Positions 26,857 to 32,179 of a stretch of DNA of 64,000 nucleotides are shown one piece after another. The translations under genes were made by a program, and so were the position numbers. The notes under the pieces were generated by a model that did no database searches, was not told the origin of the DNA, and worked only from the letters and a program-made list of their open reading frames with translations. Position 1 is the first letter of the stretch. Each line of letters opens with the position of its first letter. Source of the stretch: a virus (taxonomy: Duplodnaviria > Caudoviricetes); IMG/VR virus record IMGVR_UViG_3300031992_000019; one strand, written 5' to 3'.

Positions 26857-27762
26857 TCATATAAACAGTTCCGATACATATCTACTTGCAAAAGGCTTTT
26901 GTGTATATATCTTTTCTGCCATTATAGATTGTTTCCCATTTGCCGACATTATACTTCTTAATCCGCACATAGCAATAGGAGCGAAACCTTCTGGCATATC
27001 ATACTCGCTAACAAATATAGGAAAATCCAATGACAATGCCCATTTATAGAAGGCATCGTGGTCAAATGGGCAATTATACTCATTTGTCCCCTTATATGGA
27101 ATATCACAATAGACAACATCGCCTTCTTTTATTTCAATATCACGATAATCGCTTTGCAGACTTTCCAACCTTTGCAGACTTTCCAACCTTTGCAGACTTT
27201 CCAACCTTTGCAGACTTTCCAACATCTCTATTGATTGTAGTCTTTCAACACTACACAATTCCGAATCTCTTCCGACAAGTCCGTTTGCCAAGGTTTTCCA
27301 AGAGGTATATCTTTGTGATATGTCTTTTCCTTTCACTTTACCACTTATGCCTAATTCTTCTGCGGCTTTCATATCGTCATAGAAAATGGCGAAATGTGCG
27401 GCTCTTTTTAAGGCTTCAACATCTCTTCCGTAGGCATACGTCCGTAGGTCGTTGCCGAACGAGAAACAAATTGCCGCATACGCATCGGTGTCTTTCAGTT
27501 TGAAGAAGTCCTCTCGGCTTATCCATCTATCTTCACCCTTGAAGCCTCCGTGAGCCGCGCGAAGAAACGCATCGGGCATCATCCCGTTTATGTCGTTGAT
27601 GAGGAAATCGTGCCACCTTCCGCTTAACATAGCGCAATGTGTGACCGAACATCCACCGCAGAACATATCAACCAGTCTGCGCCCCGTGGGTAGCACACTT
27701 ACCACCCATTCGGCTATCCTTGCCTTACTGCCCTTGTAGGGCATTCCGTATTTTCTTGCCAT
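26857..27762 (-). CDS. Dam-like (D12 class) adenine methyltransferase
   Basis: PYKGSK, DMFCGG, INDIN, YCDIPY, FVSEY. Confidence 0.88.
   Translation of the reverse strand: MARKYGMPYKGSKARIAEWVVSVLPTGRRLVDMFCGGCSVTHCAMLSGRWHDFLINDINGMMPDAFLRAAHGGFKGEDRWISREDFFKLKDTDAYAAICFSFGNDLRTYAYGRDVEALKRAAHFAIFYDDMKAAEELGISGKVKGKDISQRYTSWKTLANGLVGRDSELCSVERLQSIEMLESLQRLESLQRLESLQRLESLQSDYRDIEIKEGDVVYCDIPYKGTNEYNCPFDHDAFYKWALSLDFPIFVSEYDMPEGFAPIAMCGLRSIMSANGKQSIMAEKIYTQKPFASRYVSELFI
27152..27223. repeat. 4 x 18-bp perfect tandem repeat (LESLQR)
   Basis: ctttgcagactttccaac x4. Confidence 0.92.
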
Positions 27763-27765
27763 AGA

Positions 27766-27930
27766 CTATCCCAAGCATATCCAGAGAATCGTAGATACAA
27801 TGATAACCAAGACAACAAAACACCCGATGAGGAACTTCGCGCACCCCCAGAAGAACTGCTTGTCCTCCTCCTCTTGTCTTTTTCGGTCGAGTTCGTACAA
27901 CTCGTCCCAATCGTAATAGTTACTTCCCAT
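27766..27930 (-). CDS. Small membrane protein
   Basis: MGSNYYDW start; C-terminal TM. Confidence 0.6.
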   Translation of the reverse strand: MGSNYYDWDELYELDRKRQEEEDKQFFWGCAKFLIGCFVVLVIIVSTILWICLG

Positions 27931-28468
27931 ACCTCGGAACATTACAACCAATGAAATTTCCAAAGACAATCACACACCAATAGGGCAGATAATCCCTCAC
28001 CAACTCCCAGTCCTCCAAGGAGGAGAACATATAGAAGCAGTCGGCTATTGAGTGATAGAATCCGCACGAAATGAACAAGGTTATGCCCCAGATGAGGGGT
28101 AACTTGTTCCCCTCCCTCGCAGCACCCACCACGAAGGTCATTATCATACCGCAGAGAATGGAACGTGTGAAACAAGTAAGATACCCAGCCTCTATCCGCG
28201 TGAAGATGATGTCCGCTCCGTCAAACCCTATCAACAAAGCACCGACAAGACACCCCACGCAGTTCAAGACGAGGGTGAGAACCAATTTTTCCCACTCTTT
28301 TATTGAGGAGTAGTCGAAAAACCCAGCCATACCCGTATATAAGGGGTACTTGTAGTGGATGATGGTCAGTAACCCGAAGGCGAAGAGTACCGCGCCCTCC
28401 AGACCTCCTAATTTCAGATATGCCGCACCTCCCAAGGAGATGCAGATGCCAGCCAATATACCTTTCAT
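27920..28468 (-). CDS. Short formate/nitrite transporter (FNT)-like channel
   Basis: GAVLFAFGL, LYTG, NCVG, CGFYHSIAD, GNFIG; multiple TM helices. Confidence 0.8.
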   Translation of the reverse strand: MKGILAGICISLGGAAYLKLGGLEGAVLFAFGLLTIIHYKYPLYTGMAGFFDYSSIKEWEKLVLTLVLNCVGCLVGALLIGFDGADIIFTRIEAGYLTCFTRSILCGMIMTFVVGAAREGNKLPLIWGITLFISCGFYHSIADCFYMFSSLEDWELVRDYLPYWCVIVFGNFIGCNVPRYGK

Positions 28469-28534: not shown

Positions 28535-29083
28535 TTAGAATAGTGTTAGTTGTCCCTCTGGCTCTGGAGGGTAGAATAAAGATTCAAAGATACAAGTGAG
28601 TACATTAACCGTAATAGAGTTGCCGTACAATTTATACATAGCAGAATTACTCAACCCCGAACTCTCCAAGATGTCTATTTGTTCATCATCCACATCTTGC
28701 AAACGTCCGCATTCCCTTGGGGTTAGCTTGCGTATTCTCAACCTTACGGGTGTGATGTCGGTGAGGAACTGGTCTGCCGCATTTCCTTCGGAGATTGTGG
28801 TCAGGAGTTCTGCCCCTTGGAGAATGTGTGTTGCAACCCATTCGTTCTCCTGCTCGGTAAACTTGTTTCTCCACTTTGCGAAAAGTTTGGAGAGAGCATC
28901 CACGAAAGCGGTTGATAGGTTTCTGTCACCCTCTTCGGACAACCTCTGCTGCTCTTCGGAGGTGAGTTTCCAAATCTCCGCAGCCTCCTCTTGGACTTCA
29001 TCGTCACCATACTGTTTCTTCAGTTTCAGATAGCCGATTCTCAAAGCCTTGTTGAGTTCGGAACGATTTTGATGCTTGAACAT
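28535..29083 (-). CDS. C5-cytosine methyltransferase, C-terminal subunit (motifs IX-X)
   Basis: RIRKLTPRECGRLQ, YKLYGNSITV; ends QLTLF. Confidence 0.88.
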   Translation of the reverse strand: MFKHQNRSELNKALRIGYLKLKKQYGDDEVQEEAAEIWKLTSEEQQRLSEEGDRNLSTAFVDALSKLFAKWRNKFTEQENEWVATHILQGAELLTTISEGNAADQFLTDITPVRLRIRKLTPRECGRLQDVDDEQIDILESSGLSNSAMYKLYGNSITVNVLTCIFESLFYPPEPEGQLTLF

Positions 29084-29084
29084 A

Positions 29085-29261
29085 TTATATCTCGATTAAA
29101 ATGAATACTTTCGGTTCGTGTGCCGTTGTTACGGTCATTGATTCGTTGTAGGGACTATTTATCTGCAATTCGCTTACCCCTCGCTTGTCTGGAGTGTCCT
29201 GATAGAAACGGATATTCCCATTCGGCATAAACTTCCAGCGGATAGACTCCTTACGTTTCAT
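29085..29261 (-). CDS. TRD-like micro-ORF 16 (58 aa)
   Basis: MKRKESIRW..SMTVTTAHEPKVFILIEI. Confidence 0.75.
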   Translation of the reverse strand: MKRKESIRWKFMPNGNIRFYQDTPDKRGVSELQINSPYNESMTVTTAHEPKVFILIEI

Positions 29262-29397
29262 AAAGTTCTATTAGTTTCCACCCCGCTCTCAAGGCATTTC
29301 TGCTCCAAGTCTGCGTGAGTGTGCCTATGTAATGTCGCTTTTCTGGGGGAGGTATTACCCCATTGTAGTCATCATAAGGAATATATCTACGTTTCAT
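29251..29397 (-). CDS. TRD-like micro-ORF 15 (48 aa)
   Basis: MKRRYIPYDDYN..IGTLTQTW..GWKLIELYET. Confidence 0.77.
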   Translation of the reverse strand: MKRRYIPYDDYNGVIPPPEKRHYIGTLTQTWSRNALRAGWKLIELYET

Positions 29398-29533
29398 ATA
29401 TCTCTACAAGTTTCCATCCGTGGCGGGGAGCGGGATTGCCAAACTGCGTGGTTATTGCCCCGATGAGCTTCTGCTCCCAGTTTGGCGGTGATGAATTATA
29501 ATCGTCAAAGGCGGTTATCTTACGTTTCCTCAT
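29387..29533 (-). CDS. TRD-like micro-ORF 14 (48 aa)
   Basis: MRKRKITAFDDYN..IGAITTQF..GWKLVEIYET. Confidence 0.77.
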   Translation of the reverse strand: MRKRKITAFDDYNSSPPNWEQKLIGAITTQFGNPAPRHGWKLVEIYET

Positions 29534-29711
29534 ATTCTACAATCAAAGAATCCTTGGTGAAGAAGGTTGTCACGCACGAGCAGACACCATCGTTGCCAGG
29601 ATATGCGTACTTCGCGTTGAATTTCGCCCCGTTCTCTCCGTGGAGATGTCTGCGCTCTCGCTCCTCGTCCGTGCGTTGCCTACGCAAGCCTTGCGCGTCA
29701 AACCTCGTCAT
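29520..29711 (-). CDS. TRD-like micro-ORF 13 (63 aa)
   Basis: ..DGVCSCVTTFFTKDSLIVEYEET. Confidence 0.77.
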   Translation of the reverse strand: MTRFDAQGLRRQRTDEERERRHLHGENGAKFNAKYAYPGNDGVCSCVTTFFTKDSLIVEYEET

Positions 29712-29856
29712 ATCCGATAACCATATAGTCTTTTTGCAGACTTGTTATTGCATTACTTGTCCCACCTCCGCGAATCTCCAACCTTTGTCGGTGTTCGGAG
29801 TTGTGCCAGTCGCCATCGGAGCGACCACGGAACGCGCAGGCTTTAACATTCGTCAT
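29698..29856 (-). CDS. TRD-like micro-ORF 12 (52 aa)
   Basis: ACAFRGR..QRLEIR..SNAITSLQKDYMVIGYDEV. Confidence 0.8.
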   Translation of the reverse strand: MTNVKACAFRGRSDGDWHNSEHRQRLEIRGGGTSNAITSLQKDYMVIGYDEV

Positions 29857-30061
29857 AGTATGCTATGTTATATCTGCCAAGCACTTCTCCAGAGCAGATG
29901 GACGGAGCGATGCCGTATATACCGTGGATGCGGTGGGGTTGAGAGTGCATCCGACTATTGAGTATCGAGCCTTCGTTGAAACGGAGTTTGCCGTGTATGA
30001 ATCCGCAGAAGATGTCGTCATTGCTGATGCTACGGATTTCATCGTAGAACATTGTTATCAT
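29843..30061 (-). CDS. TRD-like micro-ORF 11 (72 aa)
   Basis: ..QPHRIHGIYGIAPSICS..YYDEC. Confidence 0.75.
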   Translation of the reverse strand: MITMFYDEIRSISNDDIFCGFIHGKLRFNEGSILNSRMHSQPHRIHGIYGIAPSICSGEVLGRYNIAYYDEC

Positions 30062-30207
30062 ACCTCATTGTACTCTACCACTCTCATACAAGTTTGGAAT
30101 CCAGTACCCTCCAACGTGTGAACAACGTTCGCCACAACCAAAGGATGAAGATATAGGAGCGACCCCTCCCTATCTCGGACGTGTCCCAAAAGATGTTTAT
30201 GTTTCAT
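30058..30207 (-). CDS. TRD-like micro-ORF 10 (49 aa)
   Basis: MKHKHLLG..VANVVHTLEG..VVEYNEV. Confidence 0.75.
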   Translation of the reverse strand: MKHKHLLGHVRDREGSLLYLHPLVVANVVHTLEGTGFQTCMRVVEYNEV

Positions 30208-30337
30208 AATACTCTAACACTCCCATCTCTCTTCGCCCACCTTTCGAACAGACAATATTGAGGGAATAGTGGTTGGACGTAAGAAGTGCTGCTGCACATC
30301 CGTCTGCCGTTTCGTTGAATATTCTACGTTTCCTCAT
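30197..30337 (-). CDS. TRD-like micro-ORF 9 (46 aa)
   Basis: MRKRRIFNETADGCAAALLT..GVLEYYET. Confidence 0.77.
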   Translation of the reverse strand: MRKRRIFNETADGCAAALLTSNHYSLNIVCSKGGRREMGVLEYYET

Positions 30338-30461
30338 ACTCAATAACAAGTTGTCCCCTATCGGACATAGGATTTGCAGGGACGCAGAACGCGATGTCCT
30401 TGTAGGAGTAGTACCCAGCACCCCTATCACCGACCATCTGGCATATCTTATATTTCCTCAT
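30324..30461 (-). CDS. TRD-like micro-ORF 8 (45 aa)
   Basis: MRKYKICQMVGDRG..IAFCVPANPMSDRGQLVIEYEET. Confidence 0.75.
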   Translation of the reverse strand: MRKYKICQMVGDRGAGYYSYKDIAFCVPANPMSDRGQLVIEYEET

Positions 30462-30588
30462 ACCTTACGCAAAGCAAAGGAGATTTATAATCGGTCTGCA
30501 ATATCGTTGGCGCGATGTTGAAAGACTCCCTTATCTCGCCGAACTTCTTGAGAGGATTAGGACAAATGGAAGCCTTACTCATTCTCAT
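30448..30588 (-). CDS. TRD-like micro-ORF 7 (46 aa)
   Basis: ..IAPTILQTDYKSPLLCVRYEEI. Confidence 0.77.
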   Translation of the reverse strand: MRMSKASICPNPLKKFGEIRESFNIAPTILQTDYKSPLLCVRYEEI

Positions 30589-30724
30589 AGACTATGATTT
30601 TCGGTTCTACGCCAGAATGACAACCTACTCCGATGGTAGGGCACAAACCCCTCGGATGACACACCACCCCATTTTGTCGGGAATGATAGCAATATCCCAC
30701 AATGATAATCCTACTGCTCGCCAT
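30575..30724 (-). CDS. TRD-like micro-ORF 6 (49 aa)
   Basis: ..QNGVVCHPRGLCPTIGVG..EPKIIVYENE. Confidence 0.8.
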   Translation of the reverse strand: MASSRIIIVGYCYHSRQNGVVCHPRGLCPTIGVGCHSGVEPKIIVYENE

Positions 30725-30887
30725 AGACGCTCACGAAGAAATGATTTCTGAACGATATACCCACGCAGATTGTTCCCGCGATGTCATTCGTTATCTGGTT
30801 GTAGTCATCTATCCAAATGTTCGGTCGGTCTATCCTGCCCTCTCTTATCATCTTGTGGAGAGTCTTGCAGCCGTTAATCTTCCGCAT
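30711..30887 (-). CDS. TRD-like micro-ORF 5 (58 aa)
   Basis: ..WIDDYNQ..IAGTICVG..FFVSVYGEQ. Confidence 0.77.
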   Translation of the reverse strand: MRKINGCKTLHKMIREGRIDRPNIWIDDYNQITNDIAGTICVGISFRNHFFVSVYGEQ

Positions 30888-31044
30888 AGTCGCTCACGAA
30901 AAATATTCCTGCGTCATACCTCGCCCTTATCGTACCAGCATATCCATCAAAGACGATTTGGTTGTAGGTGTCCAGATACTGACCGCCACGAAAGACCTTA
31001 CCGCTCGACAATAGCGATTTCAACCTTGTCCTATCGTTCTTCAT
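30874..31044 (-). CDS. TRD-like micro-ORF 4 (56 aa)
   Basis: ..YLDTYNQ..YAGTIRARYD..FFVSDYAED. Confidence 0.77.
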   Translation of the reverse strand: MKNDRTRLKSLLSSGKVFRGGQYLDTYNQIVFDGYAGTIRARYDAGIFFVSDYAED

Positions 31045-31174
31045 ATTCCATTACTGCCGTTGCCCCAAGTCCGTCACTCCTGATGAAGTTCGCGACTCCA
31101 TTCTTGAAATACTGCGCCTTGATGGTTCGTGCCGTACATCCTTCGGCAGGGTTGATGATTCTCTTATTGCTCAT
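31031..31174 (-). CDS. TRD-like micro-ORF 3 (47 aa)
   Basis: ..ARTIKAQYFKNGVANF..ATAVMEYEER. Confidence 0.8.
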   Translation of the reverse strand: MSNKRIINPAEGCTARTIKAQYFKNGVANFIRSDGLGATAVMEYEER

Positions 31175-31304
31175 AATACTCCATTGCACCCGTTGCCGCG
31201 AAAGTACCCTCTCTAACGAGGTTGGCGGTGGAGGTCTGCTGATATTGCGCCTTTATAGTTCGACATAAACCTTTCTGGTCATTCAAGGGTTTAACTCTCT
31301 TCAT
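31164..31304 (-). CDS. TRD-like micro-ORF 2 (46 aa)
   Basis: ..GLCRTIKAQYQQTSTAN..ATGAMEYYEQ. Confidence 0.8.
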   Translation of the reverse strand: MKRVKPLNDQKGLCRTIKAQYQQTSTANLVREGTFAATGAMEYYEQ

Positions 31305-31464
31305 AGGCTATCACCGCAGTCATAGGGAAATGTCCGAGGGAGAGGACATTGGTGTCACCCATACCAGCACCGTATCTTGTCGTGATGGTCGCGGTACATC
31401 CGTCCCTTGTGCAGGGACAGGCCCCGTAATACCCCCCCCTAAATCGGAACAGGTCAATCTTCAT
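31291..31464 (-). CDS. TRD-like micro-ORF 1 (57 aa), contains a G8 tract
   Basis: MKIDLFRFRGG..DGCTATITTRY..HFPMTAVIAYEES. Confidence 0.77.
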   Translation of the reverse strand: MKIDLFRFRGGYYGACPCTRDGCTATITTRYGAGMGDTNVLSLGHFPMTAVIAYEES

Positions 31465-32179
31465 GCTGTCTGCGGAAATAGCTCAACATCTTGTCGGAGA
31501 TGAAGTATTTCTCGTCAACCTCGTCCTCAAGGACATCAATCAGGTGTTTCTCCAGAGGGAAAGGCTTGGGGAACGTGTAACGTGGCAGCGGGTCTTCATC
31601 GTCAATACGGATGGAAACCAAGAAGATTCTCTCTCTATTCTGCGGCACGCCGTAACTCTTGGAGTTGAGGATTTCACCGCTTGAATAATAACCCTGCTTT
31701 TCGAGGTAGAGTTGCCAGTCGAGAAAGTAACCACGGAATCGGTTGCTTACAAGGTTCTTCACGTTCTCCATAAGCAGATACTTTGGTTTCTTCTCCTCGA
31801 TTGCTTTTGCGCATACCCAAAGGAGAGAGGAACGTGTGCCGCTATCCTTTTCAAGACCTAACATTTTACCCGCTTGGCTGACATCGGTGCAGGGGAAAGA
31901 GTAAGTGAAAAGGTCGAAATCGGGAACCTTGCTCCAATCAATCTTGCAGATGTCACCGTAATTCTTGTCGGCAGAATCAGGGAACAATGCCTTATGAGCA
32001 ATTACCGCAGGTTGCTTGTCGATGGGTGCATTGCTTTCTGGGTCAAACTCCGACCAACCAACAAGTGTATAGTCGAAATCGGGGTGTATTTTCTTCAACC
32101 GCTCCAACGCAAGACATTGAGAGTCATAGCCTGCGAACGCCGTGAACACTCTTAAAGGGTTTTCCTTATTGTACTTCAT
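31454..32179 (-). CDS. C5-cytosine methyltransferase, N-terminal catalytic subunit (motifs I-VIII)
   Basis: FTAFAGYD, YGDI, SFPCTD (catalytic PC), LMENV, PQNRERIF; stops at the start of the variable region. Confidence 0.92.
   Translation of the reverse strand: MKYNKENPLRVFTAFAGYDSQCLALERLKKIHPDFDYTLVGWSEFDPESNAPIDKQPAVIAHKALFPDSADKNYGDICKIDWSKVPDFDLFTYSFPCTDVSQAGKMLGLEKDSGTRSSLLWVCAKAIEEKKPKYLLMENVKNLVSNRFRGYFLDWQLYLEKQGYYSSGEILNSKSYGVPQNRERIFLVSIRIDDEDPLPRYTFPKPFPLEKHLIDVLEDEVDEKYFISDKMLSYFRRQHED

Follow-up and report, generated by a model that had tools for sequence, protein, structure and literature searches.

The 165,288-bp (165-kb) genome of a rumen phage (Duplodnaviria; Caudoviricetes; IMG/VR record IMGVR_UViG_3300031992_000019) carries, on the minus strand of the 64,000-nucleotide (nt) stretch analysed here (the window), a C5 methyltransferase whose conserved core is divided into two open reading frames (ORFs) with 16 micro-genes between them. 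Judging from sequence homology, the peptides encoded by these micro-ORFs are true target-recognition domains (TRDs), homologous to the variable region that separates motifs VIII and IX in other C5 methyltransferases. From the sequence and a structural model, we consider it rather probable that the TRDs are translated separately by termination-reinitiation at overlapping start codons and that each docks between the core halves. The wider proposition, for which we see the chances as evenly balanced, is that free-standing TRDs of 45-72 residues can serve C5 methyltransferases as exchangeable specificity subunits. A two-piece core would then be loaded in turn by 16 co-translated micro-proteins, and a logic like that of the Type I 'S subunit' would have arisen within the C5 family, using self-contained cassettes that could be shuffled from phage to phage by virtue of their stop/start overlap; in relatives, poly-G tracts would switch them one at a time.

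A two-piece core around sixteen micro-ORFs

The ORF listing and the raw sequence give 18 successive minus-strand ORFs, namely an N-half, 16 micro-ORFs and a C-half, the whole packed into 3.6 kb. An earlier note on this DNA, made from the sequence alone, had proposed that the catalytic half (motifs I-VIII) and the motif IX-X half are separate ORFs, and this is borne out by their placement on Pfam PF00145: the N-half aligns with positions 7-214 (E 1e-42) and the C-half with positions 197-322 (E 9e-10). Consequently, both belong to a single C5 methyltransferase, the N-half supplying motifs I-VIII and the C-half motifs IX-X. The motifs FPC (motif IV, with the catalytic Pro-Cys), ENV (motif VI) and QNRER (motif VIII) are legible in the translation of the N-half and invariant across 54 homologues. 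In the C-half, RIRKL.E and GNS are invariant in 46 homologues while T121 and P122 are nearly so. As these alignments indicate, both core halves are under purifying selection with all catalytic motifs kept, and an activity forming 5-methylcytosine is predicted. Homologues of the C-half number 93 and measure 100-319 amino acids (aa). About 7,900 homologues of the N-half were found, the best 120 of which (60-72% identity, 239-321 aa) are too short to be whole enzymes. The predicted fold of the C-half (predicted local distance difference test score, pLDDT, 81) has helices at residues 9-109, the first ~110 residues forming a confident helical bundle for which a PDB fold search with the C-half returned no structural relative.

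The 2.4 kb between the halves are tiled without gaps by 16 ATG-started ORFs of 45-72 aa (T01 to T16), and the coordinates and numbers given for this tiling in the earlier note were all confirmed. The 18 ORFs, and one homopolymer, are given below in order of translation. Overlaps are with the preceding ORF, related loci carry our working labels (L followed by a number), and pN/pS and dN/dS denote ratios of non-synonymous to synonymous polymorphism and substitution, respectively.

31454..32179, minus strand: N-half, 241 aa, comprising motifs I-VIII plus the beginning of the small domain and ending ..YFRRQHED-stop
31291..31464, minus strand: T01, 57 aa, core CTATITTRY, holding the G8 tract; 11-nt +1 overlap with the N-half
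31432..31439, minus strand: G8 homopolymer within T01, a candidate slip site that would toggle T01; the tract of L165 is G7
31164..31304, minus strand: T02, 46 aa, core CRTIKAQY; 14-nt +1 overlap; dN/dS 0.09 against L165; paralogue of T03
31031..31174, minus strand: T03, 47 aa from its ATG, core ARTIKAQY; 11-nt +1 overlap; dN/dS 0.30 against L165
30874..31044, minus strand: T04, 56 aa, core AGTIRARY; 14-nt overlap; dN/dS 0.11
30711..30887, minus strand: T05, 58 aa, core AGTICVG; 14-nt overlap; similar to in-frame enzymes in their variable region (E 9e-9)
30575..30724, minus strand: T06, 49 aa, QNGVV..GLCPTIGVGCHSGVEPKI; the module used in the three-chain model
30448..30588, minus strand: T07, 46 aa, core APTILQTDY; 14-nt overlap; homologues in L170 and L003
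30324..30461, minus strand: T08, 45 aa, core VPANPMSDRG; 14-nt overlap
30197..30337, minus strand: T09, 46 aa from its ATG, core AAALLTSNHY; 14-nt overlap; homologue in L001
30058..30207, minus strand: T10, 49 aa, core VHTLEG, end EYNEV with a TAC Tyr codon; 11-nt overlap upstream
29843..30061, minus strand: T11, 72 aa, core APSICSG; start in a 4-nt ATGA overlap, the sole -1-frame step
29698..29856, minus strand: T12, 52 aa, core SNAITSLQKD; 29 matches to in-frame variable regions, best E 8e-8
29520..29711, minus strand: T13, 63 aa, core CVTTFFTKD; 14-nt overlap; pN/pS 0.10 against L245
29387..29533, minus strand: T14, 48 aa, core GAITTQFG; matches the L183 variable region, E 2e-8; pN/pS 0.14
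29251..29397, minus strand: T15, 48 aa, core GTLTQTW; paralogue of T14
29085..29261, minus strand: T16, 58 aa, core SMTVTTAHE; ends LIEI-stop, 1 nt before the ATG of the C-half
28535..29083, minus strand: C-half, 182 aa, a ~110-residue helical bundle followed by motif IX (RIRKLTPRE) and motif X (GNSITV)

Homology of the modules to target-recognition domains

Eight of the 16 modules match the motif VIII-IX region of in-frame methyltransferases of 448-593 aa (E 9e-9 to 8e-3), which hold about four TRDs per chain. The TRD-like nature that the earlier note had proposed thus finds support in a comparison with C5 methyltransferase variable regions. T04, for instance, matches the variable region of in-frame enzymes of 509-512 aa (L009, L010 and L012; E 3e-5), T10 also matches that of L183, and a homologue of T12 is fused in frame directly to motif IX (motifs IX-X) in L002 and L005. 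Pfam scans of all 16 peptides gave nothing meaningful, as expected for variable regions. Three paralogous pairs occur among the modules, including T02/T03 and T14/T15, and the figure of 16 specificities is therefore an upper bound.

The T06 family was followed through 1.84 billion proteins, among which 51 homologous cluster representatives were found, 45 of them free-standing and 46-110 aa long; the aligned homologues mostly end in YE(E/D). A profile of the family matched no C5 methyltransferase among the PDB sequences. The layout of T06 (strand, G..RVY, G-x-x-P-T-L, GGG, strand) is like that of what we take to be the M.HhaI recognition region, a resemblance only. Another protein, P0214 (1161 aa), displays 12 weak stretches similar to T06 residues 10-37; it was set aside because it contains no methyltransferase domain.

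Selection on the modules and authenticity of the sequence

When five modules are compared with their counterparts in L245 (~90% DNA identity), 43 synonymous and 14 non-synonymous changes are counted, a pooled pN/pS of 0.09; the C-half gives 0.17 in the same comparison. T16 is 100% identical to its L245 counterpart at the amino acid level despite 5 synonymous changes, T10 is 98% identical (pN/pS 0.05), and T11, which also has a homologue in L001, has a pN/pS of 0.10. Against L165, dN/dS ranges from 0.06 to 0.30, the lowest value being that of T01 (89% identical). In more distant loci synonymous sites are saturated, yet 45-64% amino acid identity is left; micro-ORFs homologous to T08, for example, are found in L001, L003 and L173 at 53-60% identity. 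By these measures the modules are under strong purifying selection in their own frames, and each frame is protein-coding.

Over 2.4-3.5 kb of the array, G8 tract included, the sequence is matched at 100% identity by the contigs L246, L247 and L248, which stem from three independent samples. The earlier note had named one continuous ORF in raw reads or relatives as a finding that would speak against the split, and these three identical assemblies uphold 18 separate ORFs. Contigs from RNA libraries (two runs, one sheep-gut sample) cover nearly the whole array and exhibit no differences, gaps, indels or joints relative to the DNA, hence no sign of frame repair at the RNA level. The runs bearing the sequence, judged without those that hold only a small share of it, are sheep and bovine gut metagenomes, and all population evidence comes from contigs, which drop rare variants. 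Such identity between samples bears on the explanation that a formerly in-frame multispecific gene was broken by indels, as a pseudogene or through faulty assembly. One third of the related loci are split, some of them maybe through sequencing errors at poly-G tracts, as that explanation would have it. The regular +1 overlaps with their start codons, the pooled pN/pS and the recurrence of the same design on the distant phage backbones L001 and L003 argue against it as well, and we regard it as already refuted.

The modules also behave as independent units. In L245, T15 is gone as one whole unit and T12 is frameshifted beside intact and conserved T13, T14, T16 and C-half. In L165, tracts of G7-G9 put the homologues of T01, T02, T03 and T06 out of frame, whereas those of T04 and T05 are undamaged. 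In L245, the T10 homologue is immediately preceded, in the place of T09, by an ORF (L245:2-271) with a zinc-finger end (CPQCG...) resembling the end of an IS200/IS605 TnpB; the contig stops there, and this array may be interrupted by an insertion element.

Loss of T15 as a unit could also be read as the mark of a silent library, in which only the TRDs adjoining or recombined onto the N-half or C-half are used and the inner cassettes serve as a recombination store. The cassettes are indeed bounded by similar junction sequences of 11-17 nt, and their order and number differ among relatives. Recombination between junctions, however, restores the same stop/start overlap and never fuses frames, and the inner cassettes keep their own ATG and a pN/pS as low as that of the core, which in the short run would be needless if they were unexpressed. 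Neither DNA nor RNA contigs contain joints, though contigs would miss rare ones. We consider a silent library improbable.

Junctions and the translation of the array

From the N-half to the C-half, the successive ORFs overlap by 11, 14, 11, 14, 14, 14, 14, 14, 14, 11, 4, 14, 14, 14, 11 and 11 nt, followed by a 1-nt spacer. The earlier note had counted 15 of 17 junctions at which the next ATG is in the +1 frame and the overlap measures 11 or 14 nt; this count was reproduced, and the step is into the +1 frame at 16 of 17. These overlaps originate from a Tyr or His codon followed by G (TAT-G or CAT-G), which creates an ATG, with the stop 2-3 codons later. Junctions of this kind occur at 4.4 per kb in the array versus 0.076 per kb in the remaining 165-kb genome (both strands), i.e., ~58-fold more densely. 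Start codons at the junctions are under selection, since the Tyr codons at module ends are TAT in 14 cases and TAC in one, versus a TAT:TAC ratio of 30:25 within the ORFs; the sole TAC falls at a junction without +1 overlap. Some junctions have His (CAT-G) or a TTG start in place of Tyr, and in-frame relatives are devoid of the Y-E-x-x-stop ending at their TRD boundaries, which together argue that the junction is a translation signal and not an element of the fold. The arrays of L167, L173 and L174, in which ORF chains break at poly-G tracts, are left out of these junction statistics.

At all 17 junctions the ATG lies 1-14 nt from the stop, as in translationally coupled overlapping genes, an arrangement that points to reinitiation. 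Bacterial ribosomes are known to reinitiate at start codons a short way upstream of a stop; a scanning model of the process was reportedly put forward by Adhin and van Duin in 1990.

The regularity of the frame steps would also fit serial programmed +1 frameshifting, or four-base decoding at the stops, yielding polyproteins of the N-half with one or several TRDs, the active enzyme being a fusion. All steps but one enter the +1 frame, reading the stop plus one base as a single step lands in the frame of the next ORF, and relatives with TRDs fused in frame to the N- or C-half indicate that fusions work. On the other hand, no slippery site is shared: the codons preceding the stops include AGT, CAA, CGA, GAT, CAG, GAG, ATA, ACG, ACA, GTA, TGT and GTT, and each of the three stop codons occurs. 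Every junction keeps a start codon, needless for frameshifting, and junctions 11 (ATGA) and 17 (TAA-T-ATG) are classical restart overlaps. The frameshifted T12 of L245 and the out-of-frame modules of L165 lie upstream of intact, conserved modules. Moreover, 17 shifts at 50% each would leave about 1e-5 of full-length product, so that a split core would be needed anyway; as a full fusion requires 17 successive frame changes, the core halves must meet in trans. We therefore hold serial frameshifting to be unlikely. The earlier note had kept this alternative; its general form is disfavoured by the varied pre-stop codons and the kept starts, while shifts may still take place at single junctions. 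Quadruplet or suppressor decoding was dropped, as ARAGORN detected none of the tRNA genes in the window and only two, both ordinary, in the phage genome: tRNA-Gly(CCC) and tRNA-Arg(CCT), with no suppressor or odd-loop tRNA.

Three-chain model and proposed mechanism

Three alignments, one each for the N-half, the C-half and T06, served as input for a joint model, run three times alongside three controls, following the earlier suggestion to co-fold both halves with a peptide. T06 was placed between motif VIII and motifs IX/X with scores of 0.78, 0.79 and 0.77, versus 0.01 for the best of the three controls; in calibration, 58 of 80 solved complexes attained that mark, as did 2 of 110 mismatched pairs. 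The partner pLDDT is 71 and at least 90% of the contacts agree between runs. In the modelled complex, residues 21-34 of T06 rest against motif VIII (N-half 179-183), and its end strands against both N-half residues 226-238 and motif IX (C-half 112-120); T06 also touches motif X (C-half 150-155), and residues 28-35 of the C-half bundle touch the TRD. The modelled place of T06 is the canonical TRD position, which shows compatibility, not binding.

Peptides of 45-72 aa could act as competitors, and might be made for another role, for example to serve as decoys or to inhibit or regulate methyltransferases or restriction enzymes of the host, next to a split core that is inactive or uses a single module. 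The purifying selection on both core halves with all their catalytic motifs speaks against this, as do the homology of the modules to working TRDs of single-chain enzymes and the modelled position of T06. We give such a role little credence.

We propose instead that one minus-strand operon, comprising the catalytic N-half, 16 separate TRD micro-proteins and the C-half, would encode a multi-part, multispecific C5 methyltransferase. A ribosome stopping at the end of an ORF would restart at the ATG 11 or 14 nt upstream, formed by the last Tyr or His codon and a G, and such a restart at each junction would make every module its own peptide. One TRD peptide at a time would dock through its first and last strands between motif VIII and motifs IX/X, restoring the small domain found in ordinary C5 methyltransferases. 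Cores carrying different TRDs could then, as a pool, methylate up to about 13-16 different sequences and guard the phage DNA against many restriction enzymes of its host; one enzyme core with many modules probably protects against many such enzymes. Because each cassette begins and ends with the same short junction, cassettes would be movable as whole units, allowing their gain, loss and swap, and in relatives poly-G tracts would additionally toggle single modules.

Several points weigh against this proposal. Reinitiation through 17 successive junctions could leave very little of the C-half, which is encoded last, and promoter and terminator scans of the array gave nothing above shuffled controls, with no internal promoter beyond chance. 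The three-chain score may reflect no more than contacts made within single-chain C5 methyltransferases of solved structure, and its calibration used pairs of single chains whereas the model comprises three chains with their own alignments. The RNA-library contigs may represent carried-over DNA. Finally, our literature search found no characterised C5 methyltransferase with a free-standing TRD subunit.

Distribution and poly-G tracts in relatives

Many phage contigs from rumen and gut share the design, and the comparison of cassettes across related phages that the earlier note had suggested reveals that their number and order vary. L001 and L003 bear the same tight junction design on other, distant phage backbones. 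The nearest genome matches are Bacteroidales and Prevotella metagenome-assembled genomes, and the phage DNA collection holds no DNA similar to the array except for a 111-nt motif match. Both halves are within reach at 198 related loci, of which 132 consist of a single ORF and 66 are split; motifs VIII and IX are at most 1,237 nt apart in the single ORFs, and every array of at least 1.4 kb is split.

Relatives such as L165 and L174 carry poly-G tracts within the array, up to 13 in L174. In the arrays of L174 (5000-8100), L173, L167 and L061, 5-13 tracts of G8-G12 were observed, typically at the Gly-Gly-Gly of each TRD. These tracts suggest module-by-module phase variation, but may include homopolymer sequencing errors of metagenomes. 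The window has a single tract, the G8 of T01, and is itself almost fully locked on. Between contigs, the T01 tract is G8 and in frame in the window, and G7 and out of frame in L165. Behind the G8, the -1 frame of T01 (31320-31457, minus strand) runs through 45 codons without a stop and closes 16 nt short of where T02 starts; in L165 it is this frame that the ATG opens. This open frame may carry ribosomes to the next start even with T01 off.

Relation to known methyltransferases

The multispecific C5 enzymes of Bacillus phages, M.SPRI, M.Phi3TI, M.Rho11sI, M.H2I and M.(phi)BssHII, studied by Trautner, Noyer-Weidner and colleagues, are single polypeptides with 3-5 TRDs, each shown to act independently, according to the work cited in PMC8936443 and PMC12707154. 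The array resembles them in being phage-encoded and in bearing several short tandem TRDs with T-[LIV] cores between motifs VIII and IX, here 16, and the presumed role, protection from several restriction systems, is shared. In-frame relatives of the Bacillus phage kind, i.e., the 448-593 aa enzymes, share TRDs with the window. Unlike in these enzymes, the TRDs and conserved parts are not on one polypeptide but on 18 ORFs in shifted frames, with a two-piece core.

Two-chain C5 enzymes are known in M.AquI and M.EcoHK31I, and complementation between split fragments has been described for M.BspRI, M.BsuRI, M.HhaI and M.SssI (PMC3404938). As in M.AquI and M.EcoHK31I, motifs I-VIII and IX-X are on separate polypeptides and the break is in the variable region (PMC3404938). 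Enzymes of the M.AquI type consist of two pieces with a single specificity, the TRD being attached to one or both pieces (PMC3404938), whereas the halves described here lie 2.4 kb apart with 16 genes between them and a TRD on neither. A third, exchangeable TRD piece with 16 alternatives is implied.

The principle of a separate specificity subunit on a common methylase core, with alternative specificities, is shared with Type I HsdS and phase-variable hsdS systems, but only by analogy: the families are unrelated (amino-methyltransferases versus C5 methyltransferases), and HsdS varies by DNA inversion or recombination, not through an array of co-expressed micro-genes. Methyltransferases that vary in phase through simple repeats (phasevarions) are reviewed in PMC11868660. 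As in phasevarions, poly-G tracts inside the coding sequence of relatives (L165, L174) would switch expression; phasevarions switch the whole enzyme, while here single recognition modules would be switched.

A literature search found no description of a methyltransferase with separate TRD genes. What seems new is that the TRDs have genes of their own, that there are so many of them, that the core enclosing them is in two pieces and that the cassettes meet at such a junction. Should the peptides function as we propose, the enzyme would be the first of the C5 methyltransferases to read DNA through a separate, exchangeable subunit. Such a design would explain how a very broad anti-restriction repertoire (up to 16 targets) fits into 3.6 kb and why large TRD arrays are always split, and would offer a natural plug-in scaffold for methyltransferases of chosen specificity. 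The micro-ORFs would also be widespread functional genes of 45-72 codons that routine phage annotation misses or leaves unnamed.

Neighbouring genes and antisense frames

Just downstream of the array, positions 26857-27762 (minus strand) encode a D12-class N6-adenine methyltransferase (PF02086). This gene contains a repeat at 27152-27223, four perfect 18-nt copies encoding (LESLQR)n, which may form a linker of variable length. Between the two methyltransferase genes, 27920-28468 (minus strand) encodes a 182-aa membrane protein resembling formate/nitrite transporters (PF01226, E 7e-13), found in the same position in the relative L245 and in a 119-kb ENA contig. Two antisense open frames, 29482-29961 (plus strand, 159 codons) and 30702-31268 (plus strand, 188 codons), extend over the TRD array and match no family; we take them to be by-products, on the other strand, of three-frame coding.

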